A model generated the notes under the pieces. The model was not told where the DNA came from. It was given only the letters and a program-made list of their open reading frames with translations, and did not search any database. Made by a program: the position numbers and the translations under genes. A DNA stretch of 64,000 nt. It comes from Massiliimalia sp. (lineage in GTDB: Bacteria > Bacillota > Clostridia > Oscillospirales > Ruminococcaceae). Positions 1-61,730 of the stretch are shown one piece after another (position 1 is the stretch's first letter; each line of letters opens with the position of its first letter). The DNA is taken from positions 28,916 to 92,915 of the forward strand of contig JBMNPJ010000010.1 in NCBI GenBank assembly GCA_050943535.1. Direction: 5' to 3'.

Positions 1-420
1 CTGGTGCTTTTCTTCCAGCTGACAGAGTACGAACGTAGTGGCATTGCCCCACCGCCAGGTGGTTAGCGCCGCAGCGCTTTCCAAAAGTGTCGTTTAGTAT
101 AGATGTGTAAACAACTCTTGTGGGTGTAGAGAAAGCCTTCGGCTATCTCCAGGGGCAGGCCGACTAACTATATATTTCCGGAAGACGCCCCTCTGGTGTG
201 CTTTTCATCCAATGCTTTTGCACATCAAAAGCATTGGTGCAGGTGTGGGCTGCATAAGCCCACTATTAAGTGGCGGACTCGGTCCGCCACGGCAACGCCG
301 GTGCCAATCATCTTCCATGTGTACGATGTTAGGAAATTAAAAACTATTTGATATTTTCGATTTACTGATAGAGTATGCACCGTAGGCGGTTGGTACCGGG
401 TACTGTCCGACGGTTGTATA
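1..420 (-). repeat. Composite intergenic repeat element, partial at window edge
   Basis: Contains the reverse complement of the module ggggcgtgctccggaaatat..gttagtcg..ctgcccc..gaaagcgctgcggcgctaa (62-190) and ctgacagagta arms (19-42, 365-387) shared with seven other loci. Confidence 0.85.
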
Positions 421-481
421 TGTTTCACAAGGCTTGTCCATAAAAATTTCCGGAAAGTCTATTCTCAAAATCCATGTTTTG

Positions 482-524
482 TGCTATACTGAAAACAAAG
501 GTGGCTCGTGTTCGAGCACGAACA
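482..524 (+). promoter_or_regulatory. Extended -10 promoter element (TGcTATACT, 482-490) and downstream inverted repeat TGTTCG-N4-CGAACA (509-524), possible operator
   Basis: Motifs read directly, upstream of the RBS aaggag and ATG 562. Confidence 0.45.
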
Positions 525-561
525 AACACATAAACGGAATTAATAAAGGAGTGCAAAACCT

Positions 562-2085
562 ATGGCTTATTTATTGGGAATTGACGTGGGAACTTCCGGG
601 ACAAAAACCGTTCTGTTTTCCGAAGACGGAAAAGCGGCAGCGTCTTATACGGTAGAATATCCTATGAGTCAGCCGAAAAACGGATACGCAGAACAAAATC
701 CAGAAGACTGGTGGAATGCGGCAGTACAGACCATTCAGGCAGTTTTGGGAAAATCCGGCGTAGATCCGAAAGAAGTAAAAGGGATTGGGATTTCCGGACA
801 AATGCACAGTCTGGTAATGCTGGATAAAGACGGGAAAGTAATTCGTCCGTCTATTTTGTGGTGCGATGCCAGAACCGGAGAAGAATGTGCGGAAATCACC
901 GAAATCATCGGTGCAAAACGGCTGATTGAAATTACTGCCAATCCGGCATTGGCTGGATTTACCGCAGGAAAAATCCGCTGGGTACAGAAGCACGAACCAG
1001 AAAATTATGCAAGATGTGCTCACATTCTGCTGCCCAAAGACTATATCCGCTATCAGCTGACCGGCGAATTTGCGACCGAAGTATCTGACGCTTCCGGAAT
1101 GCAGCTTTTGGATGTGCCAAACCGCTGCTGGTCTGATGAAGTGCTGACCAAACTGGGCATTGATAAGGGCTTGCTGGGCAAAGTCTATGAATCTCAGGAA
1201 ATTACCGGTACTGTTTCTGCTTCTGTGGCAAAACTCACCGGTTTGGCAGAAGGCACCCCAGTGGTAGGGGGCGCTGCTGATAACGCAGGAGCCGCAGTGG
1301 GCACCGGCGTAGTGCGCAACGGAAAGGCATTCACCACCATCGGTTCTTCCGGTGTTGTATATACTCATTCTTCTAAAGTCGCTATTGACCAGGGCGGCAG
1401 AGTACACACCTTCTGTTCCTGTGTACCAGGCGAATGGCTGGTCATGGGATGTACTTTAAGCGCTGGCATGTCTTTGAAATGGCTGAGAGATAACTTCTTT
1501 GCAGCAGAAATGGAAACTGCCGGCCGTATGGGTGTTGACCCGTATTATCTCATGGACAAAGAAGCAGCTCAGGTGGAAATCGGTTCCAACAAACTGATTT
1601 ATCTGCCATATCTCATGGGCGAACGCAGCCCGATTTTGGATCCAAACGCCAGAGGCGTGTTCTTTGGTCTGTCTGGAATGCATACGAAGAAAGAAATGCT
1701 CCGTGCCGTTATGGAAGGGGTTACCTATTCTCAGCGTCACTGCATGGAAGTGATTAAAGCAATGGGCGTAGAGTTCAGCGAAATGCTGGCATGCGGCGGC
1801 GGTGGTTCTTCTCCTCTGTGGCGCCAGATGCTGGCAGATGTATATGGCATTCCGGTTATGACTCTGGAAAACCGGGAAGGTCCGGCAATGGGTGTTGCCA
1901 TCCTTGCAGGGGTAGGCGCCGGCATTTACGACAGCGTAACTTCTGCCTGCGACCAGCTGATCCGAGTAAAAGACCAGCATGCTCCGATTCCGGAAAATGT
2001 AGTGGAATATGAAAAATTCTATCAGCTGTATACCCAGATTTATCCTCAGCTGAAAGAACAGTTTGCAGCGCTGCAAAAACTGTAA
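562..2085 (+). CDS. xylB: FGGY-family sugar kinase, xylulokinase-like
   Basis: GIDVGTSGTK, GQMHSLV, PSILWCDAR, PYLMGERSP and GGGGSSPLWRQMLAD motifs; RBS aaggag. Confidence 0.85.
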   Translation: MAYLLGIDVGTSGTKTVLFSEDGKAAASYTVEYPMSQPKNGYAEQNPEDWWNAAVQTIQAVLGKSGVDPKEVKGIGISGQMHSLVMLDKDGKVIRPSILWCDARTGEECAEITEIIGAKRLIEITANPALAGFTAGKIRWVQKHEPENYARCAHILLPKDYIRYQLTGEFATEVSDASGMQLLDVPNRCWSDEVLTKLGIDKGLLGKVYESQEITGTVSASVAKLTGLAEGTPVVGGAADNAGAAVGTGVVRNGKAFTTIGSSGVVYTHSSKVAIDQGGRVHTFCSCVPGEWLVMGCTLSAGMSLKWLRDNFFAAEMETAGRMGVDPYYLMDKEAAQVEIGSNKLIYLPYLMGERSPILDPNARGVFFGLSGMHTKKEMLRAVMEGVTYSQRHCMEVIKAMGVEFSEMLACGGGGSSPLWRQMLADVYGIPVMTLENREGPAMGVAILAGVGAGIYDSVTSACDQLIRVKDQHAPIPENVVEYEKFYQLYTQIYPQLKEQFAALQKL

Positions 2086-2098
2086 TCAAAAGGATTCT

Positions 2099-2345
2099 CC
2101 AACCACCTGGCGGGCAGTGCCCGCACCCAATGACGCTGCGCTCGCATTCTGCCAGCTGGGTGATAAAAACAAGCGATTTCCACTTTGCCGACAAAGTTTG
2201 AGCCGAAGGCGGGCAGTGCCCGCATCCAATGACGCTGCGCTCGTATTCTGTCAGCTGGGTGATAAAAACAAGCGATTTCCACTTTACTGACAGAGTATGC
2301 GCCGTAGGTGGTTTTCGCCGGTCAGTACCGGACACCGTCCGGAAA
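2099..2345 (+). repeat. Two tandem ~99-bp copies of the palindromic repeat module
   Basis: gacgctgcgctcg at 2132 and 2231; arms ctg(c/t)cag...c(c/t)gaca around a 32-nt loop. Confidence 0.9.
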
Positions 2346-2429
2346 AAATAATTGAGATGATTACAAGGGACGCTGCAAGCCGTTTTTATGGCGGCGTCCC
2401 TTGTTCGATTTACAGAAAGGCGGGTGCTT

Positions 2430-4400
2430 ATGATGAAGCAACTTTCTCCCCGACAGATTCATTTGGATTTTCATACCTCCGAACACATTCCTCACATTGG
2501 GTCTGATTTTGACCCAAAAGCTTTTGCAAAAACAGCCAAAGAAGCATATATCAGCTCCATGACCGTGTTTGCCCGGTGCCATCACGGCTGGCTTTATTAT
2601 CCTTCCAAAAAATTTCCGGATCGGATCCATCCCAATCTGGAATATCCTAATCTCTTATTAGATCAGGTGCGGGCGCTCCATGCAGAAGGGATCAAAGCGC
2701 CGGTTTATATTACAGTGCAGTGGGATTATCACACAGCCACCACCCATCCGGAATGGCTGATTCGCAAACGGGATGGTTCCCATGAAGGCGGCCCGTTTAC
2801 CGAACCAGGATTTTATCAGTCTTTGTGTGTCAACACCGGCTACTGGGAGTTTCTCAAAGAACAGACCGCGGAGGTCTGTGAAATGCTGGGCGACGAATTG
2901 GACGGCATCTTTTTTGACATTGTAGGAATTCGCCCCTGCCTGTGTGCTTCCTGCCGGGCAGAGATGAAACAGCGGGGCATGGATCCAGGCGATGACCGTC
3001 AGGTACGGGAATTTGCCGTGATGGTGATGAACCGGTTTAAGGAAAATATGACCGCTTTGGTGCGGCAGTACAACAAGGACTGTACCATTTTTTACAATGC
3101 CGGTCATGTAGGCCCCTGCACCAAAGAAAGCCGGGAAGCCTACACTCATTTTGAACTGGAAAGCCTGCCTTCCGGTGCGTGGGGATATCTTCATTTTCCG
3201 GTGACTGCCCGCTATGCCAGAACCCTGGGAAAAGACTGTATGGGTATGACCGGAAAATTCCATACTGAATGGGGAGATTTCCACAGCTTAAAAAATCAGG
3301 CGGCGCTGGAGTTCGAGTGTTTCCGCATGCTCAGTTTTGGGTTTGCCAGTTCCATCGGCGATCAGCTGGAACCCTTTGGCCGGCTGAATCCTGCCGCGTA
3401 CCGACTGATTGGCAGGGTATACCAGCAGTTTGCTGAGCGGGAAGAATGGGCACGTCCCTCCACTCCGCTGGTAGAGGCGGCAGTAGTAACGCCGGAATCT
3501 CCGCTTTATGAACAGCAGATCCCGGAAAGCGTTATGGGTGCGGTACAGATGCTGGAAGAACTGGCAGTGCAGTTTGATGTGATCGATCCCCAGATGGATT
3601 TAGAACGGTATCCACTGATTATTCTCCCGGATGATTTGGTAGTAGACCATGAATTCCAGCAAAAACTGGAACAGTATGTATCCCGAGGCGGTCGGGTAAT
3701 CGCCTGTGCCAAAGGGGGACAGAATGAACAGGGAGAATATCCTGCCTGCTTTGGTGCCAAGTCCATGGGTGCTCAGCCAGTTTATCCGGACTTTATTGTT
3801 GCTGAGGGAGAACTGGCACAGGGCTTGGAACCGGACAATGAATATGTCATCTATCTTCAGGGAGAAAAACTGGAGCTTTCAGGAGGAGAAGTCCTGCTGT
3901 CTGCCCGGGCGCCTTATTTTAAACGGGAAAAAGACTGGTTCTGTTCTCATCGGTATACTCCGTCCGCCAAAGGAGAACGCTATCCTGCCGCTGTGCGCAA
4001 TGGAAATATCATTGTGTTTGGTCACCGGATTTTCGAACAGTACCGGGCAAACGCACCGTTCTGGTGTAAAAAGCTGATGGAAAACGCCGTCAATCTGCTT
4101 TTGTCCAATCGGTTGGTGACCCACAACGGACCATCTACCATGACGGTGAGCCTATTGGCACAGCCGGAAAAAGAGCGGGTAAATATTCATCTGCTGTCCT
4201 ATATTCCGGTTCGGAAAAGCGCTACCATCGACCTGATTGAAGAGCGTACGGTGTTGAGAAATGTTACCCTGAAACTGAATCTGCCGGAAGGATTTTCTTC
4301 TGCCCGGCTGGTACCGGAAAACCGGGTGATTCCAGTAGAGGGAAATACCATTACCCTTGAAGAAATCAACGGTTATGCCATTGTAGAATTGACCAAATAA
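2430..4400 (+). CDS. Putative glycoside hydrolase, GHL6-like TIM barrel with C-terminal beta-galactosidase trimerisation-like domain
   Basis: N-terminal QIHLDFHTSEHIP..VFARCHHGWLYYPS and ELESLPSGAWGY typical of this uncharacterised family; RBS gaaagg supports ATG 2430 rather than 2388. Confidence 0.65.
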   Translation: MMKQLSPRQIHLDFHTSEHIPHIGSDFDPKAFAKTAKEAYISSMTVFARCHHGWLYYPSKKFPDRIHPNLEYPNLLLDQVRALHAEGIKAPVYITVQWDYHTATTHPEWLIRKRDGSHEGGPFTEPGFYQSLCVNTGYWEFLKEQTAEVCEMLGDELDGIFFDIVGIRPCLCASCRAEMKQRGMDPGDDRQVREFAVMVMNRFKENMTALVRQYNKDCTIFYNAGHVGPCTKESREAYTHFELESLPSGAWGYLHFPVTARYARTLGKDCMGMTGKFHTEWGDFHSLKNQAALEFECFRMLSFGFASSIGDQLEPFGRLNPAAYRLIGRVYQQFAEREEWARPSTPLVEAAVVTPESPLYEQQIPESVMGAVQMLEELAVQFDVIDPQMDLERYPLIILPDDLVVDHEFQQKLEQYVSRGGRVIACAKGGQNEQGEYPACFGAKSMGAQPVYPDFIVAEGELAQGLEPDNEYVIYLQGEKLELSGGEVLLSARAPYFKREKDWFCSHRYTPSAKGERYPAAVRNGNIIVFGHRIFEQYRANAPFWCKKLMENAVNLLLSNRLVTHNGPSTMTVSLLAQPEKERVNIHLLSYIPVRKSATIDLIEERTVLRNVTLKLNLPEGFSSARLVPENRVIPVEGNTITLEEINGYAIVELTK

Positions 4401-4401
4401 A

Positions 4402-4432
4402 AGCAGTCTGTATTTGGGGGAAAGACGGTTTT
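4402..4432 (+). terminator. Intrinsic terminator after the glycosidase gene
   Basis: aagcagtct/agacggttt stem followed by a T run. Confidence 0.5.
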
Positions 4433-4444
4433 TATGGGGTGCCC

Positions 4445-4474
4445 TTGACAAAAAGGACTTGTTTGGTGTACAAT
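4445..4474 (+). promoter_or_regulatory. sigmaA promoter TTGACA-N18-TACAAT with no downstream + strand CDS
   Basis: Near-consensus -35 (4445-4450) and -10 (4469-4474). Confidence 0.7.
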
Positions 4475-4480
4475 GAACTT

Positions 4481-4607
4481 ATCATAAAACTCTCAAGAGG
4501 GATGACCATCCCGGGCGTCTGTGGACGCTGAGACCCAAGTGATGACTTGTTTGTGAGACAGACCGCAGCGGCCGGAGCAATTCGGCGGATGCGGTCTGTC
4601 TTTTTTA
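4481..4607 (+). ncRNA. Candidate structured small RNA (~127 nt), family not recognised
   Basis: Own promoter, three internal hairpins, 12-bp terminator stem (4556-4567/4590-4601) plus T tract; no ORF with a usable RBS. Confidence 0.6.
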
Positions 4608-4608
4608 T

Positions 4609-4650
4609 AAAAAAATCTCCCCCGGAAGCCTAAAGGACTTCAGGGGGAGA
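4609..4650 (-). terminator. Intrinsic terminator of the kinase/nucleotidyltransferase operon
   Basis: tctccccc/gggggaga stem followed by T7 on the minus strand. Confidence 0.7.
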
Positions 4651-4672
4651 AGGCAAAAACAGGTAAGTGAAA

Positions 4673-5773: not shown

Positions 5774-5791
5774 GGTATGGGGTCTCCTTTC

Positions 5792-11275: not shown

Positions 11276-11791
11276 ATGAAATTATATATTACAGGATCGG
11301 TGGCAAGCGGAAAATCCACCCTTGCCCGACAGATTTCTGCCAAAACCGGGATTGTGTGCACCCATCTGGACGAGGTTGTGTACAAAAAAGCCCCTGAAAA
11401 TCCTCAGGGAGATGTAAAGCGGCCGCCGGAAGAACGGGACAGGCTGTTTGAGCAGGTGTTGGCACAGTCCGATTTTATTATGGAGGATGCAGGACGGGAA
11501 TGTTTTTTGCGTGGAATGGAACAGGCAGACCAAATTATTTTACTGGAAATTCCACTGTGGATTCGAAACAAGCGGATTGTGTGGCGATGGATGAAACAGA
11601 ATCTGGGGTTGGAAGACTGCCTTTACAAACCTGATTGGGTGATGCTAAAAGCCATGTTGGAATGGGCCAAAAACTATGACCGGGGAATAGACGGAACCAA
11701 AAGAAGAGTAGCCCAATATTCGGACAAGGTAATTGTTTTGAAAAACAACCGGGAAATCCGCAGATATTTATGGGAACAGTACCCTCGGTAA
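11276..11791 (+). CDS. P-loop kinase/ATPase, FlaR (topology modulation protein)-like
   Basis: ITGSVASGKSTLA Walker A, HLDE and adenylate-kinase-like layout. Confidence 0.7.
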   Translation: MKLYITGSVASGKSTLARQISAKTGIVCTHLDEVVYKKAPENPQGDVKRPPEERDRLFEQVLAQSDFIMEDAGRECFLRGMEQADQIILLEIPLWIRNKRIVWRWMKQNLGLEDCLYKPDWVMLKAMLEWAKNYDRGIDGTKRRVAQYSDKVIVLKNNREIRRYLWEQYPR

Positions 11792-12150
11792 TGATATTGC
11801 GTTCGTGTTCTGCCAGTTGGAAGATAAAAACAAGCGATTTCTGCTTTACTGACAGTGTATGCCCGTAGGCGATTGGCACTGGCGCTGCCCGGTGGGCTTA
11901 CGGCGGACGGTGTCCGCCGCCCTGTTTTGTGGGCAGCGCTGCCCACACCTGCGCCCTATTTTCTGAGGCCAGAAAATAGGGGGAAAGAGCCTTCCTCAAA
12001 CGCCGGAAGAGCTTACGGGGGGCGTGCTCCGGAAATATTTTGTTAGTCGCCCTGCCCCAGGAGATAGCCGAAGGCTTTCTCTCCTCCCAAAGTACAGTTT
12101 TTACATTTGGGGAAAATTTCTATTAGTGGAAAGCGCTGCGGCGCTAATCG
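11775..12150 (+). repeat. Composite repeat element between convergent genes
   Basis: Palindromic module (11798-11872), acacctgc hairpin module and ggggcgtgctccggaaatat..gaaagcgctgcggcgctaa module (12018-12148). Confidence 0.9.
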
Positions 12151-12220
12151 GTTCAATGAGTCTAGTGTAATTCTTTTATTTGTGCAATTCGCTAGTTTAC
12201 ATTACCTTTTTCTATAGACT

Positions 12221-13036
12221 TTACTGGCGAAGCCTTTTTGGGTCCAGGGGTGTGAACCCCTGGCGGCGGTATTCCCTGGGGGTAGTTTGAGTGTATTTGG
12301 AAAACGCCCGGTTAAAGGAACGGGGAGAAGAAAATCCGCAGCGAAATGCAATTTCGGTAATGGGCAGATCACTCATTCGCAGCATGCGGCAAGCATCAGA
12401 GATGCGCAGGGAACTGATATAGTCGGCAAAGGTCATATGCATTTTCTGCCGAAACAGGTGAGAAAGGTAGTATTTGCTTAAATGAAGCATTTGAGCCACC
12501 TGTTCCAAAGAGAGGTCTTCCAGATAGTGCTGGGAGCAGTAGGTGAGCACGTCGCCGATGGTGTTGCTTTTTTTGGCAGAGGTTTCGGTCAGTTCCAGCA
12601 TGTCAAACAGTTCGCTTAACAGCAGCAGAAAATATCCCCGGATGCGTTCCTGCTGAAAAGTGCCTGCATTCATTGCTTGAGAAATACCTTCCAGCAGAGG
12701 GAGAATCCGTGGATTGGAAGTGCCGCCAGAAATCACCGGAGAGACAGGCACTTTGTTTTGAAATAAGGGTAAAAATTCCGGACAAATTTCCGGCGGAAAA
12801 ATGCATAGAATGTGATGCTCTAATCCCATATTTTGATATTGATGGATCTGGTTGGAAAATACAAGAAAGATGTCTCCGCCTTTGATCACATACTCTTCGG
12901 AGTCTACAAAGGCGCGGGAATATCCGTCAAACAGATACACCAGCTCAATGTGGCTGTGAAGATGGGCATCAAATCCCAGGCTGGTGCCGTAGCTGAACTG
13001 AATATCCGGACTTCGATTTTCGTAGAAAAATTTCAT
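12221..13036 (-). CDS. AraC-family regulator with cupin sensor domain
   Basis: AHLHSHIEL cupin motif; LSKYYLSHLF and IAFRCGFSSPRSFNRAF HTH; second Met (13036) taken as start. Confidence 0.85.
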   Translation of the reverse strand: MKFFYENRSPDIQFSYGTSLGFDAHLHSHIELVYLFDGYSRAFVDSEEYVIKGGDIFLVFSNQIHQYQNMGLEHHILCIFPPEICPEFLPLFQNKVPVSPVISGGTSNPRILPLLEGISQAMNAGTFQQERIRGYFLLLLSELFDMLELTETSAKKSNTIGDVLTYCSQHYLEDLSLEQVAQMLHLSKYYLSHLFRQKMHMTFADYISSLRISDACRMLRMSDLPITEIAFRCGFSSPRSFNRAFSKYTQTTPREYRRQGFTPLDPKRLRQ

Positions 13037-13212
13037 GAAAGATACCGCCTTGCTCAAGAAACAATTTCCCGGGAAACAAAAAAGACAGCAATATTTGTCT
13101 GATTTTTCCCGGTTTATGACTTGTATTATAGCATTTTTGAGCCTAAAATACAAATAAACGGATTGAAAGCCGCATGGATGAAAATGCGGCAGAACAAAAG
13201 GAGGATACGATC

Positions 13213-15282: not shown

Positions 15283-15289
15283 ATCATCA

Positions 15290-15690
15290 GAGGGTCACAC
15301 CCCTGGCGGGTAGTACCCGCTGACAAAGACGCTACGCTCGTGTTCTGTCAGTTGGAAGATAAAAATAAGCGATTTTTGCTTTACTGACAGAGTATGCGCC
15401 GTAGGCGATTGGCTCCGGACACTGTCCGCTGACCACACCTGCATCCTTTCTTTTGACGCCCAAAAGAAAGGAAAAGAAAACGGCGCTTGGGGGCGTGCTC
15501 CGGAAATATTCGGTTAGTCGCACTGCCCCCAAGACCCCCAGGTACAGTTTACACATCTGAGGAAAACGGTTGTTTTGCAAAAAGCGCTGCGGCGCTAATA
15601 CTCTACTTATCGATTGTGTGGTAAAAGCTGGTGATTTTTACTTTCCTGACAGAACACGTGCCGTAGGCCAATTGCACCGGCGCTTCGCCG
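15290..15690 (+). repeat. Composite repeat element
   Basis: Palindromic module (15329-15406), acacctgc hairpin, ggggcgtgctccggaaatattcggttagtcgcactgccccc module and a second partial palindrome ending gccgtaggc (15660-15668). Confidence 0.9.
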
Positions 15691-15806
15691 GTTTTGAACA
15701 AAAAGCAAAGACTTCTCATACATTTTGAAAATCCGTCAAAAAACAGTTGACTTTTCCCATGCTTTAAGATACGCTGAAAGAAGAGTAATCCGAAGGAGGA
15801 GAATTT

Positions 15807-18591: not shown

Positions 18592-18745
18592 CCACCAGGG
18601 GTTTACACCCCTGGACCCGAAGAGGCTACGCTCGTATTCTGCCAGCTGAGAGGAAATTACCACATATTTTCGCTTTACTAACAAAGTTCGCGCCGAAGGC
18701 TATTTGCTCCGGCTCTTAGCCGGTTGTCCCACCGCCAGGTGGTTT
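18592..18745 (+). repeat. Repeat element (ccagggg..acacccctggaccc module plus palindromic module)
   Basis: gaggctacgctcgtattctgccag-32 nt-ctaacaaagttcgcgccgaaggc; ends ccaccgccaggtggtt as at 48-63. Confidence 0.9.
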
Positions 18746-21364: not shown

Positions 21365-22780
21365 ATGAATATTTTTCCTACACAGATTGGATATACCAAG
21401 GTAACACCGCCTGTATTTGAAATGCCGAAACGTCCGGCAGATCTTTCTGATCAAGTATATGAAGCGCACAAATCCCGCACCCTTTCCGCAATGAAAAACC
21501 TGGGCATGGATGCTCTGGTCGTTTACGCAGACCGGGAACACGGGAGCAATTTTGGATATTTAACCGGGTTTGAGCCCCGGTTTGAAGAGGCGGTTTTGGT
21601 TCTGCTGCCAGATGGAACAGCCTCTGTCCTGCTGGGAAATGAATGCCTCAAAATGCATGCTTACAGTCGGATTCCAGTTACCCCGATTCACACTCCATTT
21701 TTCTCACTGCCCAACCAGCCTATGGAAGGGGAACGTCCTTTGGAACAGGTTTTTGCTCAGGCAGGAATCCAGGAAGGGATGACCGTTGGGGTAGCAGGAT
21801 GGAAACTGTTTACCGGAAAGGATCCCCGCAATACCTTTCTTATGGATGTGCCCCATTTTATTGTACAGGCGCTGATTGAAGCAGTAGGGGATACAGGAAT
21901 TTTGAAAAACGGAACTGGACTGTTTATTCATGCAGATACTGGGGTGAGAAATACTGTATGCGCTGAAGAAGCTGCCGCTTATGAATTTGGTGCGGCAATG
22001 GCGTCTTATTGTGTACAGCAGGTATTGGAATCTCTGTGTGTGGGTGCCAATGAACAGGAACTGGCAAGTTTGCTCAGCCGTTACGGAATGCCTCTTTCCT
22101 GCTACAGCATGTGTGCTACCGGCGAACGGTTTACCAATGGGGTGGTATATCCCCGGGATAAAAAGGTATGTTTAGGGGATAAGTTTACCACATCTATGGG
22201 TCTGCGGGGCGGTTTGACCTGCCGCGCAGGATATGTGGCTGATACCGCCCAGGATCTTCCACAGGAAGTGGAAGACTATGTGGAAAAAGTAGCAAAACCT
22301 TATTTTGCCGCCACTGCCACTTGGTACAGTACCGTGGGAATCGGTGTTTCCGGCGGAGAAGTTTATTGGGCAGTAGATGGTGTATTTCCGAAAAAGGATT
22401 ATGGCTGGAAACTTAATCCGGGACATCTTTCTTCTTCAGAAGAATGGATGAGTTCTCCGATTAGTGCCGGGTCTCCTGTTCTGCTTCGCAGCGGCATGAT
22501 GCTGCAGATGGATATTATTCCGTCTGTTCCCGGATACGGCGGCATCAATGCGGAGGATGGCGTTCTTTTGGCAGACGAACGGCTGCGGGAAGAAATCCAC
22601 ACCCAGTTCCCAGAAGTTTGGAACCGGATGCAGCGCCGGAGAGAATACATGATAAAAGAACTGGGAATCCCGCTGAAAGAGGAAGTACTCCCTATGACCG
22701 ACTCTGTGGGATACCTGCGGCCTTTGCTGTTAAACCGGGAGATGGCATTGAAGGTAACCCATCTGGCAGTGGGCAGGTAA
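21365..22780 (+). CDS. M24/creatinase (pita-bread) fold protein, Xaa-Pro aminopeptidase-like
   Basis: YADREHGSNFGYLTGFEPRFEEA N-domain; LNPGHL and INAEDG C-terminal motifs. Confidence 0.65.
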   Translation: MNIFPTQIGYTKVTPPVFEMPKRPADLSDQVYEAHKSRTLSAMKNLGMDALVVYADREHGSNFGYLTGFEPRFEEAVLVLLPDGTASVLLGNECLKMHAYSRIPVTPIHTPFFSLPNQPMEGERPLEQVFAQAGIQEGMTVGVAGWKLFTGKDPRNTFLMDVPHFIVQALIEAVGDTGILKNGTGLFIHADTGVRNTVCAEEAAAYEFGAAMASYCVQQVLESLCVGANEQELASLLSRYGMPLSCYSMCATGERFTNGVVYPRDKKVCLGDKFTTSMGLRGGLTCRAGYVADTAQDLPQEVEDYVEKVAKPYFAATATWYSTVGIGVSGGEVYWAVDGVFPKKDYGWKLNPGHLSSSEEWMSSPISAGSPVLLRSGMMLQMDIIPSVPGYGGINAEDGVLLADERLREEIHTQFPEVWNRMQRRREYMIKELGIPLKEEVLPMTDSVGYLRPLLLNREMALKVTHLAVGR

Positions 22781-22784
22781 CATC

Positions 22785-22935
22785 TGCCGGCAATGACGAT
22801 TTGCCGCTAGGGGTTGAATCCCCCGGACTGGAAGAGGATAAACTGGTATTTTGTGGGGAAAGCGAAATAATCGCTTTTTATTATCCAACTGACAGAATAC
22901 GAACGTAGTGTCAGTGGGGGCGGCAGCTTGCCGCG
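22785..22935. repeat. Degenerate copy of the repeat family
   Basis: ctgacagaatacgaacgtagtg (reverse arm) with a 32-nt loop; ggcaatgacg..aggggttgaatcccc resembles other copies. Confidence 0.65.
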
Positions 22936-22998
22936 AGTGTTCGTTTCTGTTGGTTTTTATATGGTTTTTTAAACATTCTTTGCGCATTTTCTGTTTAG

Positions 22999-23235
22999 TT
23001 TTTCACATTTTCCACCGAGTTTTTGACTATACGGTTTGTATATCGGGAAAGAAAGTGGAAAATACGGTAGAGAAAGTGGAAAACACTTGATAAATTAACA
23101 GGGTTTTCAACGTTTTCAACCAAGTTTTCAACACAAATTGAAAAAAGTGGGAAAAGCAGGGAAAATACTCGTTTACAATTTGTATATTTGTGGAAAACAC
23201 TTTGGACATGATGGGGAAAACTTTTCTGTACAGTG
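22999..23235. promoter_or_regulatory. Cluster of DnaA-box-like 9-mers
   Basis: Perfect TTWTNCACA at 22999 (+) and 23189-23197 (-); single-mismatch boxes at 23008, 23054, 23075, 23125, 23212, 23227; two-mismatch TTTTCAAC(G/C) at 23104 and 23113. Confidence 0.7.
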
Positions 23236-23248
23236 TTTTTCCAAAGAA

Positions 23249-23286
23249 AAAGGGTCTGTCTCAATTCCTTTTGAGACAGACCCTTT
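23249..23286. terminator. Strong bidirectional terminator hairpin
   Basis: aaagggtctgtctcaa/ttgagacagacccttt. Confidence 0.8.
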
Positions 23287-28705: not shown

Positions 28706-28931
28706 TCGAGATCACATCCTTTATCAAGCAATCAAAATCATATTTCTTCATTTCCTCTACTGGTACGTCTACATCATATCCCCATGATTTTCTTTTTTCA
28801 AGGGTTTTCAGGGATTCCTCACAGGAATTCTACGGAATCAAAAGGAATTACAAAAGCTAGAATTCGTTTTTTGGGGATATTTGCCAAAGGAAAGTGGAGT
28901 TTTTTAGGGAAAATAAAGGATGCTAAAAGAA

Positions 28932-37612: not shown

Positions 37613-37624
37613 TACCCAGCAACG

Positions 37625-37832
37625 CTTGACAATTTTAGTTATACTGACAAAGTGCGAACGAAGCCGGACAGTGTCCGGTGCCAACCGCCTTCGGCGCATA
37701 CTCTGTTAGGAAAGCGGAAATTATTTGTTGTTATTGCTCAACTGACAAAATACGAGCGTAGCCTTTTGGGTCCAGGAGTGGGAACCCCTGGCGAGCGAAG
37801 CGTCATTGGGAATGAGTACTGCCAGAAGAAAG
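37625..37832 (-). repeat. Repeat element between accD and accA
   Basis: gccttcggcgcatactctgttag-32 nt-ctgacaaaatacgagcgtagcc plus gggtccagg..acccctgg and gcgtcattggg modules, in reverse orientation. Confidence 0.88.
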
Positions 37833-39158: not shown

Positions 39159-39498
39159 TTGCAAAAGCCGGGGTGGTATGGTATTATAATTCTTGCGTGA
39201 CTGCAACAGATATGCGATGAAGCGGAAGGTTGCCGCAAAGAAATTTGCGGGTTTTTTCGTGGAGTATGTCCGATTTTAAACCGGGCGACCAATTTTGAAC
39301 ATTTTCCTATGGCCAGCAATATCCCGGCGATTTGCGCCGATGTGATTGCCATAACGTTATAGGAGTTTGCCTGCCCCGGAAAAACAGTATTGTTTTTTCG
39401 GTATTTTTATCGAGTGAGGATGAAACGCACGGCAACGTGTTTGAATTTTGCGTCTAACCCCCATTAATTTTTATGAATGCTTTAAGGAGGCGACGACA
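39159..39498 (+). promoter_or_regulatory. S10 operon promoter (TTGCAA at 39159; TATTAT/TATAAT at 39182-39190) and ~300-nt structured leader
   Basis: Hairpin plus U tract at 39233-39257; nested stems at 39305-39364. Confidence 0.6.
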
Positions 39499-55438: not shown

Positions 55439-55490
55439 AATGGTTGTAATCGTTGTAAACAATTGTTCCATTGAAAGAAAGGCGGATAAC

Positions 55491-55742
55491 ATGAAAGCAA
55501 CAGGAATTACAAGACAATTGGACAAATTGGGAAGAATTGTACTGCCCAAAGAACTGCGGAGAACATTAAACATTGAAAACGAAGATTACTTGGAAATTTT
55601 CGTGGAAGACAATGATCGGATTGTTTTGAAAAAGTATGAACCAACCTGCCTGTTTTGCGGCAGCAAACAAAATGTGGTGGAATACAAAGATAAGAAGATC
55701 TGCGCCGCATGTTTAAATGAACTTTCCAAAATGGGAAAATAA
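55491..55742 (+). CDS. abrB: AbrB/MazE/SpoVT-family transition-state regulator
   Basis: MKATGITRQLDKLGRIVLPKELRR..KKYEPTCLFCG. Confidence 0.88.
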   Translation: MKATGITRQLDKLGRIVLPKELRRTLNIENEDYLEIFVEDNDRIVLKKYEPTCLFCGSKQNVVEYKDKKICAACLNELSKMGK

Positions 55743-55755: not shown

Positions 55756-55789
55756 AAAAAGGACCGCTCTTATAAAGAGCGGTCCTTTT
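55756..55789. terminator. Bidirectional terminator between abrB and the HD gene
   Basis: aaaaaggaccgctctt/aagagcggtcctttt. Confidence 0.8.
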
Positions 55790-56366: not shown

Positions 56367-56442
56367 AAAATCACCTTGTCTTTCTAAAAGAGGGGTATCT
56401 GTTTATTTCCTGAAATTCCCTGTGTGAAACAGGGTTTGTTCC

Positions 56443-56472
56443 TTGACAAGAACATATGTTCTTTGTTATAAT
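56443..56472 (+). promoter_or_regulatory. sigmaA promoter TTGACA-N18-TATAAT (extended -10) with LexA/SOS box GAAC-ATAT-GTTC (56450-56461) in the spacer
   Basis: Matches the Firmicute SOS box core GAAC-N4-GTTC in a repressor position. Confidence 0.8.
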
Positions 56473-56603
56473 AAGTACAGAAAATCAATGAAATGGTAAA
56501 AGAGGGAACAGTTTTATTGTAACCTACGGATCAATTTTTTTCAACGGTCCCCGGCATCCGGGAACGCGGTCTGAACAAAGCCAGGGCAGAAAGGAAGACT
56601 CCT

Positions 56604-57929
56604 ATGGATTTATTTGAAAAACTTCGGATTTTGTCCGATTCCGCAAAGTATGATGTGGCCTGTACATCCAGCGGAGTGGATCGCAAGGCGTCTCCCGGCG
56701 GCATTGGCAGTGCGGCGTCCTATGGGATCTGTCACAGCTTTGCGGCAGACGGGCGGTGTATTTCGCTGTTAAAGGTGCTAATGACCAATTACTGCGTTTA
56801 TGACTGCAGATATTGTGTGAACCGATGTTCCAATGATGTTCCCAGAACGGCGTTTACCCCCAGGGAATTGGCGGATTTGACCATTCAGTTTTATCAGAGA
56901 AATTATATTGAAGGACTGTTTTTAAGTTCCGGGATTTTAAAAAATCCAGATTATACCTGCGAAAAAATGATTCAGGCGCTAGAGATTCTTCGGTATGAAT
57001 ATCATTTTTGCGGTTATATCCACGCAAAAGCTATTCCGGGGGCAGATGAACGGCTGATTTCCCGGCTGGGAATGCTGGCAGATCGAATGAGCATCAATAT
57101 TGAAATGCCCTCTCAAAAAAGTTTACAGATGCTGGCACCCAACAAGAAAAAAGAGGCGATTTTAAAACCCATGAGCTTGATCCGAGAGAAGATTACAGAA
57201 AACAGTACCGACTTGGTGCGCTACCGCCATGCCCCAAAATTTGCTCCGGCAGGGCAAAGCACCCAGATGATCATTGGGGCTACCCCGGAAACCGATTACC
57301 AGATTCTGCGGCTTGCGGAAGGACTGTACCGGAAATATGAGCTGAAACGGGTGTTTTTCTCCGCCTATATGCCGGTGGTGGAACATTCTCTGCTTCCTTC
57401 TCTGGATACAAAACCGCCGCTGCTGCGGGAACACCGCCTATATCAGGCAGATTGGCTTTTGCGGTATTACGGATTTGAGGCAAAGGAAATTCTGGACGAA
57501 GATCACCCCAGCTTTAATCCCCTGGTAGATCCCAAATGTAATTGGGCATTGAATCATATGGAGTTATTTCCGGTAGATGTAAACCGGGCCTCCTACGAGG
57601 TGCTGCTGCGGGTTCCGGGAATCGGGGTAACCAGTGCCCGAAGAATTGTCAAAGCCAGAAAGGCAGGTCCCCTTCACTATGAGGGGCTAAAAAAAATTGG
57701 AGTGGTGCTCAAGCGGGCACAGTATTTTATTACCTGCGGAGGAAAACTGCGGGAAGGGCTTCGGATTACACAGGACGGAATGCTGCGCAGCCTGATTTCC
57801 CAGCAGGGGATCAGCCTTTTGCGCAATGAGCTGGTTTCTGACCAGGCCGAGCAGCTTTCCCTGTTTCGGCAGGAGACTCAGCAGGTGACCGGGGAGGATG
57901 TAAGGCAATGTCTCACAGGACAGATATAA
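56604..57929 (+). CDS. Putative DNA modification/repair radical SAM protein with HhH motifs (TIGR03916-like)
   Basis: NYCVYDCRYC (CxxxCxxC), REHRLYQADWLLRYYGF and LLRVPGIG motifs. Confidence 0.9.
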   Translation: MDLFEKLRILSDSAKYDVACTSSGVDRKASPGGIGSAASYGICHSFAADGRCISLLKVLMTNYCVYDCRYCVNRCSNDVPRTAFTPRELADLTIQFYQRNYIEGLFLSSGILKNPDYTCEKMIQALEILRYEYHFCGYIHAKAIPGADERLISRLGMLADRMSINIEMPSQKSLQMLAPNKKKEAILKPMSLIREKITENSTDLVRYRHAPKFAPAGQSTQMIIGATPETDYQILRLAEGLYRKYELKRVFFSAYMPVVEHSLLPSLDTKPPLLREHRLYQADWLLRYYGFEAKEILDEDHPSFNPLVDPKCNWALNHMELFPVDVNRASYEVLLRVPGIGVTSARRIVKARKAGPLHYEGLKKIGVVLKRAQYFITCGGKLREGLRITQDGMLRSLISQQGISLLRNELVSDQAEQLSLFRQETQQVTGEDVRQCLTGQI

Positions 57930-58765
57930 CATGGGCGAATAAGCCTTTGATTTATGAGTATGACGGCAGTTATGACGGGTTGATGTGCTGTGTATTCGAA
58001 GCATTTCTGTGCAAAGAACTGCCTATGGAAATTCGGTGGGAAGAAACCCCGTTGGGCGGTCTTTGCGGACAGACTGGGTTTGCGCCGGTAAAATGGATTG
58101 AAACAGACAGGGAAAAAGCCAGCCGAGTTAAACGGTGGATTCCCAAAAAGATTTCCCGGGGAGCTGAAGAGCTGGTGCAAAAAGGATTTCTCAGCTGTCT
58201 GGAGCAAAAGGAACTGTGTATTTTACGCTTTTTGGTGCGGGGGTACCAATATGGTCCCGCTGTCATGAACCGGCTTGCAGACCCGGCAGTGCACCCTCTG
58301 TGGAAGGCGGTGGGGCACTATAACAAAGAAGCTCATCTGCTGACTGGGTTTGTCCGGTTTTCGATGCACAATGGGGTGCTGGTCAGTGTTATCGGTCCCA
58401 AAAACATGGTGCTTCCTGCCTTGCAGCTGCATTTCTGCGCCAGATATCCAAACCAAACTTTTATGATTTACGACTCGACTCATGGAATGGCGCTGGTACA
58501 TCAGCCGGGCAGAACGGGAATTATTCCTATGGATGAATTTGTCATGTCAGCGCCGGATGTAGAAGAGCAAAAGTACCGGAAGCTTTGGAAACTGTTTTAC
58601 GATACCATTGCAGTAGAAGGCCGGGAAAATCCCAGATGCCGCATGAGTCATATGCCAAAACGGTACTGGAGCTATATGACCGAGTTTTGTTCCCTTCCAA
58701 CCGATACACCCCAGACAGGAGAACTATCTCCTCATAATCATACAACACCCAGGGCTTTTCCTTGA
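57908..58765 (+). CDS. Putative DNA metabolism protein, TIGR03915/DUF4130-like
   Basis: YDGSYDGLMCCVF, EAHLLTGFVRF and NPRCRMSHMPKRYW; overlaps the radical SAM gene. Confidence 0.88.
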   Translation: MSHRTDITWANKPLIYEYDGSYDGLMCCVFEAFLCKELPMEIRWEETPLGGLCGQTGFAPVKWIETDREKASRVKRWIPKKISRGAEELVQKGFLSCLEQKELCILRFLVRGYQYGPAVMNRLADPAVHPLWKAVGHYNKEAHLLTGFVRFSMHNGVLVSVIGPKNMVLPALQLHFCARYPNQTFMIYDSTHGMALVHQPGRTGIIPMDEFVMSAPDVEEQKYRKLWKLFYDTIAVEGRENPRCRMSHMPKRYWSYMTEFCSLPTDTPQTGELSPHNHTTPRAFP

Positions 58766-58790
58766 AGGAATTCCCTGGGTGTTATATAAT
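58762..58790 (+). promoter_or_regulatory. Promoter TTGAAG-N17-TATAAT overlapping a cccaggg/ccctggg hairpin
   Basis: Suggests the downstream genes are a separate transcription unit. Confidence 0.55.
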
Positions 58791-58863
58791 GGAATCAGAA
58801 AACCGCAGGTAAGCCGTTGCAGGGGAATCTTTCGATGATAAAACAGAAAGGATGGGGTAGCCG

Positions 58864-59235
58864 GTGAAAAGAAAAACAGTGCTTGTCATTATCTGTCTCT
58901 TGTTTTGTCTGGCTGGATGTGTCAGAGAGGACGCACAGCAGCAAAACAGCAACCCTTATTTTAACGCGGCTGTTTTGCAGGTGCAGGACCATTCTGTTCT
59001 GGTAGAGCCGTTTCCCGGGGAAGAAGAGCGCAGGTCTTCGGATCAAATCTGGTTTAGGCTGCCGGAAAACGAGCAAAATTCTAATTTGTCAGTGAAAGAG
59101 GGAGCCTTGATCCGGGTAGTTTATAGCGGTGAAATTATGGAGTCTTATCCAGCTCAGTTGGGGCGGGTATTTGCCGTTTATCCTGTGGATGAGCAGGGAA
59201 ATCTGGTGGAGGAAACCCAATCCACTGAGAAATAA
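58864..59235 (+). CDS. Putative lipoprotein (DUF3221-like OB-type domain)
   Basis: Signal peptide with LAGC lipobox; YSGEIMESYPAQL motif. Confidence 0.7.
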   Translation: MKRKTVLVIICLLFCLAGCVREDAQQQNSNPYFNAAVLQVQDHSVLVEPFPGEEERRSSDQIWFRLPENEQNSNLSVKEGALIRVVYSGEIMESYPAQLGRVFAVYPVDEQGNLVEETQSTEK

Positions 59236-59319
59236 CCCAGAAAACAAAACCGGTTGCCAGACAGAGAAAAATCTGGTATCCTTAAAATACAGCATTCCAG
59301 CAGGCAAGGGGGCAGAAGC

Positions 59320-59922
59320 ATGGAACAAAAGAAAAAACGGTATGAGCATGCGGAATTTGTAGACTGTAATTTTCAGCAGAGAGAATTGAGCGGGTTTGTG
59401 TTTGAACACTGCACCTTTCGCAACTGTAACTGGAAAGAGGCAGTCACCCGGGGATGCCAGTTTGTAAACTGTGATTTTACCTTTGCCCAGATGAACGAAT
59501 CCCGGCATGAAAGCAGCGGGTTTATTAACTGCAAGTTTTACAGTGCCAAACTGTTTGCTGCATCTTTTGTCCAGTGCAAATGCATGGGTTCTGTTTTTAC
59601 TGATGCGGATCTCACAGCCCTAACCATTACCGGAGGCAATTTTGACTATGTGAACTTTCAGGACTGCGATCTGCGGGGCATGAATCTGTCCGGGATGTCT
59701 CTCAAGCAGGCAGATTTGCGCAAAGCGAATTTGCAGAAAGCGGTGATTCGGGATACAGATTTGACCGGCGCTATGCTCAGCGGTGCGAATCTGTTCCAGG
59801 CCGATTTGCGGGACAGCGTGCTGGATGGAGTGTATCTGAAAGATGTGAATTTCAGAAAGACCAAAATAGATCTGCAGCAGGCAGTGCTTCTGGCGGAATG
59901 TTTGGGCGGCATTGTGTGCTGA
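59320..59922 (+). CDS. Pentapeptide repeat protein (Qnr/MfpA-like fold)
   Basis: Tandem [A/C/S]-[D/N/K]-[L/F]-x-x repeats through the whole length; start at MEQKK. Confidence 0.88.
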   Translation: MEQKKKRYEHAEFVDCNFQQRELSGFVFEHCTFRNCNWKEAVTRGCQFVNCDFTFAQMNESRHESSGFINCKFYSAKLFAASFVQCKCMGSVFTDADLTALTITGGNFDYVNFQDCDLRGMNLSGMSLKQADLRKANLQKAVIRDTDLTGAMLSGANLFQADLRDSVLDGVYLKDVNFRKTKIDLQQAVLLAECLGGIVC

Positions 59923-59942
59923 CAAAATGGCAATAGAAAAGG

Positions 59943-60281
59943 ATGGGCAGTATGAATTTGTTTTCTCAAGTTCCCCATACACTTTTTGAGGAGGAACAGG
60001 TACAGGTTATCCATCAGGATGAAACCTGTCGAATTGAACGGATTCTATCCTGTGGTCAGTGTTCACCAGATGGATTCTGGTATGATCAGGAGGAAAACGA
60101 ATGGGTGACCCTGATTCAGGGAGAAGCTATCCTGAATGTAGACGGAAAACAGGTTTCTCTGCATCCGGGAGATTGCATTTTTCTCCCGAAACATCAAAAA
60201 CATCGAGTAGAATATACTAGCAAAAATCCAATTTGTATTTGGGTTTGCGTGTTTTACCCAGAAAAAGGAGAAGAAATATGA
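59943..60281 (+). CDS. Cupin-domain protein
   Basis: IERILSCGQ..WYDQEENEWV..GEA..IFLPKHQKHRV. Confidence 0.8.
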   Translation: MGSMNLFSQVPHTLFEEEQVQVIHQDETCRIERILSCGQCSPDGFWYDQEENEWVTLIQGEAILNVDGKQVSLHPGDCIFLPKHQKHRVEYTSKNPICIWVCVFYPEKGEEI

Positions 60282-60484
60282 ATCAAAAACAATTTGACCG
60301 GATTAACGAACTGGCAAGAAAAGCAAAAACCGTAGGACTCAGCGAAGAGGAAAAAGCAGAACAGAAGGCGCTGCGGGAAGAGTATATTAAGGCATACCGT
60401 GAAAGCCTGCGCAGTCAGCTGGACAACATGGTATTGGTTGATCCAGACGGAACAGAGAGAACCTTAAAACGCAAAGGAAAATAA
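60278..60484 (+). CDS. ynzC: DUF896/YnzC-family protein
   Basis: RINELARKAK..GLSEEEKAEQKALREEYI. Confidence 0.85.
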   Translation: MNQKQFDRINELARKAKTVGLSEEEKAEQKALREEYIKAYRESLRSQLDNMVLVDPDGTERTLKRKGK

Positions 60485-60519
60485 ACCGATCGATGATTCC
60501 AGGAAAGAGGGAATAGGCT

Positions 60520-61032
60520 GTGGAACTGTGGGATTTATATACCGAAAACCGGGAACCCACCGGAGAGGTTCATGTGAGGGGCAAAGCATTGCCAGCGGAA
60601 CGGTACCATTTGGTGGTTCATGTGTGGATCAAAAATCAGAAAGGGCAGTATCTGATCTCCCAGCGTTCTGCCAGCCGGCCAACCTTTCCCCTGATGTGGG
60701 AATGCGTGGGCGGTTCTGTGCTTAAAGGAGAGGACAGTTTTCAGGGGGCCTTGCGAGAGGTACAGGAAGAAGTGGGAATTGATCTTTCCCGCAATATGGG
60801 CAGGCGGCTGTTTACAAAAGTGCGGGGAACCATAGACGGAAAAACCTTTAACGACATTATGGATGTCTGGTTGTTTGCATATGACGGAGAGGCCAATCTG
60901 GCACAGGCGACCACACCGGAAGTAGTACAGAGCCGGTGGATGAGTCCAGATGAGATTCGGGCACTTTATGATAGCCATCAACTGGTAGACAGTTTAAGTT
61001 ATTTCTTTGAAAAGGTTCAAAATGAAACATAA
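60520..61032 (+). CDS. NUDIX hydrolase
   Basis: GGSVLKGEDSFQGALREVQEEVG Nudix box. Confidence 0.9.
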   Translation: MELWDLYTENREPTGEVHVRGKALPAERYHLVVHVWIKNQKGQYLISQRSASRPTFPLMWECVGGSVLKGEDSFQGALREVQEEVGIDLSRNMGRRLFTKVRGTIDGKTFNDIMDVWLFAYDGEANLAQATTPEVVQSRWMSPDEIRALYDSHQLVDSLSYFFEKVQNET

Positions 61033-61042
61033 GGGACAGAAA

Positions 61043-61084
61043 AAAATCCCCCAAGAAAGCTAAATGGCTTTCTTGGGGGATTTT
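61043..61084. terminator. Strong terminator after NUDIX
   Basis: aaaatcccccaagaaagc/gctttcttgggggatttt. Confidence 0.85.
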
Positions 61085-61189
61085 AGTTTGCATTACAGAA
61101 ACAGGTAGAACCTGTTGAAACGGTTGAGAAGAAATCGCCTGATATTTTCGCACTGCTATAGGGTACGCGCTGAAGGTCATTAGCACCAG

Positions 61190-61730
61190 ACATTGTCCGG
61201 CAGTGTCCTGCCGGGGCGAACCGAGTTCGCCAAGGAACTTTGTTCATTTTCTTATGGAAGAAAACGAACCAAAAGACCATTCCTCAAACGCCGGAACGGC
61301 TTACAGTGGGGCGTGCTCCGGAAATATTCGGTTAGTCGCACTGCCCCCCTGAGAGCGCCATTGACGCTCTCTTCCCCCCAAGTATAGTTTGCACATCTGA
61401 CGAAAACAGCTGTTTTCTAAAAACGGTCGTTGGGTGGAAAGCGCTGCGGCGCTAGCGGGCACTGCCCGGCGGGTAGCACCCGCAGGCAATAACGCTACGC
61501 TCTCCAGGGGTTCACACCCCTGGACCACCTGCGGTGGGACAAAGACGCTACGCCCGCCAGGGGTTCACACCCCTGAACCCGAAGAGGCTACGCTCGTGTT
61601 CTATCAGTTGAGTGGAAAATACATATTATTTCCGCTTTACTGACAGGGTACGTGCCGAAGGCCATTTGCTCCGGCTCTTAGCCGGTTGGCACCGGGCACT
61701 GCCCGGCGGACATTGTCCGGTCAGCTTGCC
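61190..61730 (+). repeat. Longest composite repeat element (~540 bp)
   Basis: ggggcgtgctccggaaatattcggttagtcgcactgccccc..gaaagcgctgcggcgct module, two ccaggggttcacacccctg modules, palindromic module (61584-61662) and tttgctccggctcttagccggttg tail. Confidence 0.9.

Follow-up and report, generated by a model that had tools for sequence, protein, structure and literature searches.

This study describes a family of modular palindromic repeats lying between the genes of a 64-kb stretch of DNA (hereafter the window) from Massiliimalia sp., a genus placed in the family Oscillospiraceae; the window spans positions 28,916 to 92,915 of contig JBMNPJ010000010.1. The repeat family is new, while its kind is already known: it very probably consists of non-autonomous mosaic palindromic repeats comparable to the repetitive extragenic palindromes (REPs) and bacterial interspersed mosaic elements (BIMEs) of other bacteria. 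Most of the features that define REPs, REPINs (inverted REP doublets) and BIMEs (PMC3733652, PMC6006769, PMC3116915, PMC2817692) are present in the window, and we therefore name the repeats a REP/BIME-like family. The full proposal, that these are lineage-restricted REP/BIME-like palindromes of an uncultured, little-sampled bacterium, dispersed by a Y1 HUH nuclease, has in our judgment about an even chance of being correct. The initial annotation, made from the sequence alone, had also called the repeats a BIME-like non-autonomous family. This description suits their palindromic, mosaic and non-coding nature, the lack of a mobiliser in the window and the REPIN-like layout; it suits less well a large module without a BIME counterpart and an atypical GTAG tag.

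The repeats and their modules are real and far beyond chance. Self-BLAST of the window linked the eight loci listed in the initial annotation to one another on both strands, with 72–93% identity over 30–180 nt, and the families delimited by a repeat finder agreed with the self-BLAST result. Degenerate patterns for the two arms of the principal palindrome, module A, gave eight matches each, compared with none in 100 shuffles. A covariance model of A, trained on eight copies and run over the window with filters off, recovered the training copies at 59–108 bits, six of them on the + strand (2125–2219, 2224–2318, 11786–11879, 15321–15415, 18615–18709 and 61577–61671) and two on the − strand (22832–22919 and 37678–37772). 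The model also revealed three degenerate copies, at 302–396 (34 bits), 15590–15677 (23 bits) and 61095–61186 (weak, 12 bits). Together with a copy at 1–46 that is cut by the window edge, these make 12 copies of A in the whole 64 kb, to which all the counts given here refer. The terminal hairpin of the second large module, B (AAAGCGCTGCGGCGCTA), occurs exactly four times, as expected from the four copies of B reported earlier. Module E occurs six times, and the short GC hairpins h1, h3, h4, h5 and h6 are found three to six times each, compared with 0–0.2 in shuffles; about 25 such hairpins, in five to six classes, are present in the window.

The assembly of the eight loci from common modules in both orientations was thus confirmed by self-BLAST, the repeat finder, the pattern shuffles and the covariance model. 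Self-BLAST and the model also agreed with the annotation that the 16-kb ribosomal protein cluster (39–55 kb) is free of copies. Several other points required correction. The list of eight loci was incomplete, since a ninth, composed of E and a shortened A leader, is found at 12222–12283; the last locus starts near 61095 and not at 61190; and pieces that had been read as the 3′ arm of A alone are in fact degenerate whole copies.

Module A is an imperfect hairpin of about 95 nt, composed of a 5′ arm GCTACGCTCGTRTTCTGYCAG, an AT-rich loop of about 30 nt and a 3′ arm CTGACAGAGTATGCGCCGWAGGC. The arms pair over about 22 bp, and the outer feet of the stem are CTAC and GTAG. Outside each foot lies a spacer of 6–12 nt (GACG... 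on the left and GCGATTGG on the right), followed by a short GC hairpin. With its feet, outer spacers and GC hairpins, the whole unit consists of two head-to-head “GTAG-spacer-hairpin” units, an arrangement resembling a REPIN. Two subfamilies were distinguished. In subfamily 1 (copies at 2125, 2224, 11786 and 15321) the leader is h1, the tetranucleotide GTAG, the tail h3 and the loop TGGGTGATAAAAACAAGCG; in subfamily 2 (18615, 61577 and 37772) the first three are E, GAAG and h5, and the loop differs. Leaders can also be stacked, as at 61455–61576, where three “hairpin + GACGCTACGC” units follow one another. The small hairpins retain their pairing through changes on both sides of the stem, from C-G to T-A in h1 and from G-C to A-T in h6.

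Module B is a unit of 170–230 nt that always adjoins an A. It had been regarded as an independent module; however, alignment showed that all four copies follow the same order, in which A is succeeded by tail hairpins (often including h6, GGCGGACCGAGTCCGCC) and then by the D hairpin, with CCACACCTGC preceding D in three of the four. D is a pyrimidine/purine hairpin of 12 bp whose sequence differs in every copy of B while its pairing is kept. The earlier definition of D, acacctgc plus an A/T hairpin placed before B, therefore stands for the hairpin, which is present in all four copies, and fails for acacctgc, which is present in three. Downstream of D, some copies carry module G (TTCCTCAAACGCCGGAA). 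The core of 41 nt (GGGGCGTGCTCCGGAAATAT..GTTAGTCG..CTGCCCC), which is invariant, comes next and may be followed by a variable hairpin; a conserved AAGTACAGTTTACACATCTG stretch and the 17-nt hairpin at the terminus complete the order. The left junction of B with A varies by zero to three hairpins, so the ends of B are not definable. RNAalifold predicted 33 pairs in B, seven of them with changes on both sides, a figure that is indicative only because it derives from four sequences. Module G occurs at 11992–12008 and 61280–61296; in other copies, detected in the bioreactor metagenome X1, the sequence 3′ of G is unrelated, which indicates that G is an independent module. The depth of G and its flanks in that run also exceeds that of the B core containing G. 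A scan for promoters and terminators gave no consistent signal in or beside the modules, the flanks of B included.

This organization resembles that of the REPs, REPINs and BIMEs of Enterobacteria and Pseudomonas in many respects. Both are extragenic imperfect palindromes present in tens to hundreds of copies, which form inverted doublets that fold as long hairpins and are arranged as singlets, doublets and mosaic arrays with common linkers. Both fall into several subfamilies per genome and lack terminal inverted repeats (TIRs) and target-site duplications (TSDs); GTAG/CTAC lies at the foot, though degenerate and atypically placed in the window. Both lie between convergent or same-direction genes and sometimes overlap the 3′ ends of genes. 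In the window, inverted doublets folding into a long hairpin are accompanied by decaying copies, and the linker GATTGGCA and arrays of “hairpin + GACGCTACGC” recur, although the units within arrays are mostly direct and not strictly alternating as in BIMEs. One survey reports REPs between convergent or same-direction genes (PMC3733652). The window shows the same placement: among the loci with two flanking genes, four lie between genes in the same direction (one of them within the accD–accA operon), three between convergent genes and none between divergent genes. The differences concern the host, which belongs to the Clostridia (Oscillospiraceae), the longer arms, with a stem of about 22 bp and a loop of about 30 nt, and the sequence itself, since pattern and BLAST searches found no similarity to any of the REPs tested.

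The folding and orientation of the repeats bear on how they may have spread. The best copies of A have a minimum free energy of −31 to −33 kcal/mol, with z = −3.2 to −3.7. In the three best copies, the element strand folds at −32 to −33 kcal/mol and the opposite strand at −23 to −26 kcal/mol, an advantage of 7–9 kcal/mol that is due to five to seven G-U/G-T pairs. The presence of this asymmetry in the best-kept copies suggests that the master sequence was itself asymmetric, without telling RNA from single-stranded DNA. GC skew is positive across the whole window, including stretches with genes on the − strand, which indicates that the + strand has the leading-strand sequence and that the parental + strand is the lagging-strand template. 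Among the copies scored on both strands, the better-folding strand lies on the + strand in 9 of 11 A and in three of four B. This orientation bias, which is suggestive, is in the direction expected for Y1 single-strand transposition.

We consider mobilisation by a Y1 HUH nuclease the most likely mechanism, and hold it tentatively, at somewhat less than an even chance. The basic unit would be A, a REPIN-like inverted doublet, with B attached to some of its copies; these non-coding units would be unable to move alone. They may have dispersed as single-stranded DNA hairpins on the lagging-strand template, through a Y1 HUH nuclease of the RAYT (REP-associated tyrosine transposase) or TnpA-IS200 type that acts in trans and whose gene lies in another part of the genome. 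The present mosaics could then have arisen as recombination or gene conversion among the copies shuffled the modules. Copies located within 3′ untranslated regions (UTRs) and in one operon spacer would be transcribed passively, and their hairpins may affect termination or mRNA stability.

The accD–accA operon provides the one insertion for which the empty site is known. The spacer between the two genes is 232 nt in the window and is occupied by an A unit in the − orientation. In relatives the spacer measures 12 nt (L001; 83% AccA identity), 21 nt (L004; 82%) and 68 nt of unrelated sequence (L027; 85%). The site is therefore empty in sister species and filled in the window, indicating that it was invaded after the genus had diversified. 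The closest relative (L026; 94% AccA identity) has a spacer of 138 nt holding a diverged copy of the element from which the loop has been deleted, and this common, decayed copy indicates that the insertion is old. Comparison with the empty sites in L001, L004 and L027 revealed neither direct repeats at the junctions nor a TIR bounding the inserted block, so that the lack of terminal inverted repeats and target duplications, previously judged from the window by itself, holds at this site.

Strains also differ at sites that are occupied. The h1 that is decayed in the window is intact in L007, with an identical accA start. In X6, an h4-type leader replaces E and h1 with the same left boundary, 15289, and 28 extra nt forming a hairpin lie at the junction between the tandem A copies at 2109–2306. 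A contig of X25 diverges inside the accD–accA element at 37687. The strain differences seen are thus module swaps at occupied sites, and were seen in short contigs that break at repeats. The initial annotation had named identical presence at all orthologous sites as an argument against mobility; the sites are not identical, since sister species lack the accD–accA insertion and strains differ in the modules that they carry.

The prediction that many more copies exist genome-wide was supported by sequencing depth in X1, a bioreactor metagenome that contains near-identical DNA (96% of sampled words shared with the window). The unique flanks have a contig depth of about 42 and the modules one of 550–3560. 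Summed over sequences of at least 80% likeness, the depth was about 1320 for the A 3′ arm, 550–1225 for the B core, 3190 for G and 3560 for the E/A leader, corresponding to roughly 13–85 genome equivalents per module. The modules were also found in X2, X4 (“organism A”) and X16 (“organism B”), and more diverged DNA is present in faecal, sludge, gut and bird metagenomes. Contigs of this lineage in Logan end at the repeats; a look-up of accA returned short contigs stopping inside a repeat, and an exact-protein look-up gave no entry for the FGGY kinase that flanks one locus.

The family appears to be uncatalogued, as the initial annotation had supposed. Exact patterns of the B core and the A 3′ arm had no match in 185,579 GTDB representative genomes, nor did the A 3′ arm pattern in JGI metagenomes or the B core pattern in IMG/VR. 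A shorter B pattern gave 17 metagenome matches of 20–24 nt, all of which were attributed to chance. BLASTN with the composite element found no match in plasmids or phages and no related insertion sequence there. The A covariance model had no match in about 99 kb of syntenic loci of sister species, and a peptide profile of the stop-free frame through A matched none of 5.8 billion proteins. The repeat loci gave nothing above 20 bits in Rfam 15 even at E up to 5–10, including the HEARO, IS605-orfB and group II intron motifs; at the gathering threshold, the only match in the window was the S10 leader.

Several observations weigh against the proposal as a whole. To our knowledge, REP-RAYT, REPIN and BIME systems have been described mainly, and almost only, in Proteobacteria. 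No Y1_Tnp, RAYT or other transposase domain was detected in any tested open reading frame (ORF) of the window, as the initial annotation had stated. The B module of 170–230 nt has no counterpart in BIMEs. Folding asymmetry toward the element strand is seen in five of eight A copies only and is absent from the degenerate ones, and the 9:2 orientation bias is not significant on so small a sample and must be regarded as suggestive. Template switching can produce compensatory changes in palindromes even where structure is not under selection. The copy numbers estimated from depth were taken from a metagenome, in which other organisms could contribute to them. The tag itself is imperfect: GTAG is present in five A copies and GAAG in five, and CTAC is replaced by CTGC or TTGC in three. 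Furthermore, canonical REPs are recognised by a conserved 5′ GT[AG]G tetranucleotide that sits at the hairpin foot (PMC6006769; PMC3733652), whereas the GTAG of A is paired inside the long stem, 6–12 nt from the small hairpins. Group 1 RAYTs have been reported in Clostridia, where they are weakly associated with repeated 16-mers (PMC5581495), and the text of the survey of tagged REPs does not mention Firmicutes (PMC3733652).

Other explanations can be weighed against the same evidence. The repeats might be a fossil or passive family that spread earlier by an unspecified route and has no present mobiliser, its mosaics having been produced by recombination, gene conversion, slippage and template switching. 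The age of the accD–accA insertion, whose decayed copy is shared with the 94% AccA relative, agrees with this, as do the degeneracy of many copies (12–59 bits compared with about 100 for the best), the form of the strain differences seen, which are module swaps at occupied sites and not clean presence or absence, and the tandem duplication of 99 nt at 2109–2306, which is a local event. However, dozens of dispersed copies at unrelated sites require some dispersal mechanism, and several copies are still 85–91% identical across 40–60 kb, such as those at 18592 and 61554 (85% over 135 nt); the B core at 15490 matches that at 61308 exactly for 41 nt. We regard a purely passive family as unlikely. 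It is improbable that the host has multiplied B, alone or along with A, for its own use as a functional structured RNA, either a small RNA or a cis-regulatory element of 3′ UTRs, which would make the repeats RNA genes and not selfish DNA. In favour of this, the 41-nt core of B and its terminal hairpin of 17 nt are invariant and stand beside hairpins that are optional or variable but paired, and G-U pairs allow A to fold better on one strand. The G-U asymmetry was rejected as proof of an RNA role, as it holds for five of eight copies only. The RNA runs that hold the organism consist of low-depth, unstranded metatranscriptome contigs (X25), in which the B, G, E and A modules appear at depth 2–5, and one 277-nt contig extends from the accD coding region into the element by 75 nt. 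This contig matches passive read-through, and carry-over of multi-copy DNA would look alike. An RNA function is further opposed by the failure to match Rfam even at E = 10, the lack of a consistent promoter or terminator flanking B, the occurrence of both orientations relative to neighbouring genes, a covariation that was judged on four copies only, and a number of copies (about 13–30 per genome) that is unusual for an RNA gene.

MITEs (miniature transposable elements with inverted repeats) of the classical type, deletion derivatives of insertion sequences with a DDE transposase that move by cut and paste, are likewise small, non-coding, multi-copy and intergenic, and A is a long inverted repeat. 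In contrast to fixed-length MITEs, the present family comprises singlets, doublets and arrays with common sub-modules; its composite units have no bounding TIR, the accD–accA insertion has no target-site duplication, and no related insertion sequence was found in plasmid or phage collections. An origin as MITEs is very improbable. IS110/IS1111-family elements target REPs, and B could in a similar way be a separate mobile unit that targets A-type palindromes and may carry its own guide-type RNA. All four copies of B lie directly 3′ of A and its tail hairpins in the same relative order, the core of B is complex and conserved with variable loops, and the copy numbers of the B core and A are similar by depth in X1. 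On the other hand, no recombinase gene was found among the tested ORFs of the window, the variable left junction leaves B without definable ends, no complementarity between B and its flanks was noticed, no test aimed at it having been made, and four copies are too few to judge. We give this reading little credence. Because B is constantly associated with A and combines a conserved core with hairpins that vary, there is room, at a low probability, for an RNA-based or REP-targeting element; that B is a structured RNA of the guide or bridge type, or one that is retro-mobilised, belonging to an unrecognised element homing to A-type palindromes seems to us very improbable.

The REP/BIME-like assignment was also compared with other known modular repeats. 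BOX elements of Streptococcus pneumoniae are Firmicute intergenic repeats with the modular structure boxA-boxB(n)-boxC, in which the order A-B-C is fixed and the outer modules are terminal. As far as can be judged from their description, BOX elements share with the present family stable secondary structures, a variable number of modules and the lack of a known dedicated transposase; the window family differs in its palindromic core unit, its many hairpin classes and the occurrence of both orientations in one locus. PATEs (palindrome-associated transposable elements), derived from IS200/IS605 and dependent on a Y1 TnpA, possess a fixed tetranucleotide as target, and their left and right ends are defined and bear similar hairpins. 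They resemble the window family in having neither TIR nor TSD; their subterminal hairpins are recognised on one strand, their non-autonomous copies are mobilised in trans, and an orientation bias relative to replication is expected. However, the window family has no definable ends or target tetranucleotide, there is no tnpA or tnpB in the window, and the IS605-related motifs of Rfam were not matched. Integron attC sites were ruled out, as the arms of A lack RYYYAAC and GTTRRRY cores, the copies occur in both orientations, and their neighbours are housekeeping genes (the acc operon and sugar kinases); no integrase was found among the tested ORFs of the window.

The nine loci illustrate how the modules are combined. 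Locus 1 (1–420) begins with the A copy cut by the window edge (1–46, − strand), h4 (49–62) and B unit 1 (63–262, − strand), with its D hairpin at 205–248, and continues with h6 (272–288) and the degenerate A at 302–396 (+ strand), which has a tail hairpin. Locus 2 (2099–2345, + strand), downstream of an FGGY kinase gene, consists of two tandem 99-nt h1+A units with A at 2125–2219 and 2224–2318 and tail hairpins at 2319–2342. These units are an exact-register tandem duplication (2109–2306) with 91% identity, and in the first of them much of the stem pairing is gone. Locus 3 (11770–12220, + strand) contains A at 11786–11879, tail hairpins including h6 at 11902–11918, and B unit 2 at 11938–12147, in which a D hairpin is followed by G (11992–12008), the core (12019–12058), a variable hairpin and the terminal hairpin (12130–12146). 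An AT-rich trailer, F (12148–12220), completes the locus and recurs 3′ of other B copies as loose contig ends in X1. The h1-like hairpin of this locus supplies the last seven codons and the stop of the gene at 11276–11791. The adjoining ninth locus (12222–12283, − strand), with E at 12244–12263 and a truncated A leader, forms the last 14 or so codons of an AraC-type gene at 12221–13153 (− strand), whose helix-turn-helix domain stops at residue 298 of 310; the repeat finder gave it 84–87% identity to E and the A leaders at 18592 and 61549.

Locus 4 (15287–15691, + strand) holds an E-like hairpin, h1, the best-preserved A (15321–15415), h3 (15415–15429), B unit 3 (15430–15598), which has neither module G nor the variable hairpin, a degenerate A (15590–15677) and a tail hairpin (15677–15691). 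Locus 5 (18592–18745, + strand) comprises E (18595–18614), a subfamily 2 A (18615–18709), h5 (18709–18723) and h4 (18729–18742), the last followed by a T-rich tract. Locus 6 (22781–22940, − strand) has an E-like hairpin at about 22800–22822, a degenerate A (22832–22919; 59 bits) and an h1-like hairpin (22921–22935), and begins directly after the stop of the gene at 21365–22780 (+ strand). The product of that gene, 471 aa without a Pfam or NCBIfam match, was considered as a mobiliser and rejected; its N-terminus resembles creatinase/Xaa-Pro peptidases by eye, and the gene sits in a sugar/peptidase gene cluster. On the other side of locus 6, directly after the degenerate A, lies an AT-rich non-coding stretch of about 340 nt (22940–23280) with dense iterated GTGGAAAAYAC and GTTTTCAAC motifs in both orientations, which has the look of iterons or a protein-binding cluster. 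GC skew keeps its sign there, indicating that the stretch is not an obvious origin of replication.

Locus 7 (37613–37832, − strand), inside the accD–accA operon, is built of a degenerate h1, a CGTC-type leader, E (37772–37791), a subfamily 2 A (37678–37772), h3 (37664–37678) and a remnant of a 5′ arm (37625–37660). In locus 8 (61095–61723, + strand), a weak A remnant (61095–61186) is followed by h3, h6, B unit 4 (61225–61454, with G at 61280–61296), two h1 hairpins, two “hairpin + GACGCTACGC” leader units with E at 61504–61523 and 61557–61576, a subfamily 2 A (61577–61671), and h5, h1-like and h3 tails that stop one base from the stop of an MFS gene at 61721–62920 (− strand).

The G+C content of the window is 46%, and the ribosomal protein cluster comes after a fab/acc cluster. 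For AccA, identity does not exceed 75% with any named organism (Massiliimalia, “uncultured Ruminococcus” and Oscillospiraceae metagenome-assembled genomes, MAGs); it is 82–85% with further proteins from MAGs or Logan and reaches 94% with a single Logan protein. An S10-Clostridia ribosomal leader (Rfam RF03136, 52 bits; 39209–39291) lies upstream of the ribosomal cluster. In RNA runs, other organisms share its ends and differ across about 190–220 nt between the leader and rpsJ. Upstream of the S10 operon, sister species have local repeats that bear no relation to A or B; L004 carries a 373-nt tandem duplication with 94% identity (11295–11918) and L001 a 68-nt inverted repeat (11880–11947 and 12255–12322). 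Beyond the ribosomal cluster, a small ORF at 55440–55742 (+ strand) encodes an antitoxin domain of the MazE/AbrB type, to which a C-terminus resembling a zinc ribbon is fused.

The repeats have consequences for the genome that carries them. At least three genes have altered 3′ ends as a result, and 220 nt of structured RNA come to lie between accD and accA. The repeats also break short-read assemblies of the lineage, and, as they vary between strains, they could serve as strain markers. If the reading of B as a guide RNA were true, a REP-like family in Clostridia would have a parasite that is RNA-guided or RNA-mediated. If a mobiliser is found, the family would provide a Gram-positive test case for REPINs and RAYTs as vertically inherited partners. 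A mosaic REP-like family in a gut/bioreactor bacterium of the Oscillospiraceae would widen the host range of such elements.

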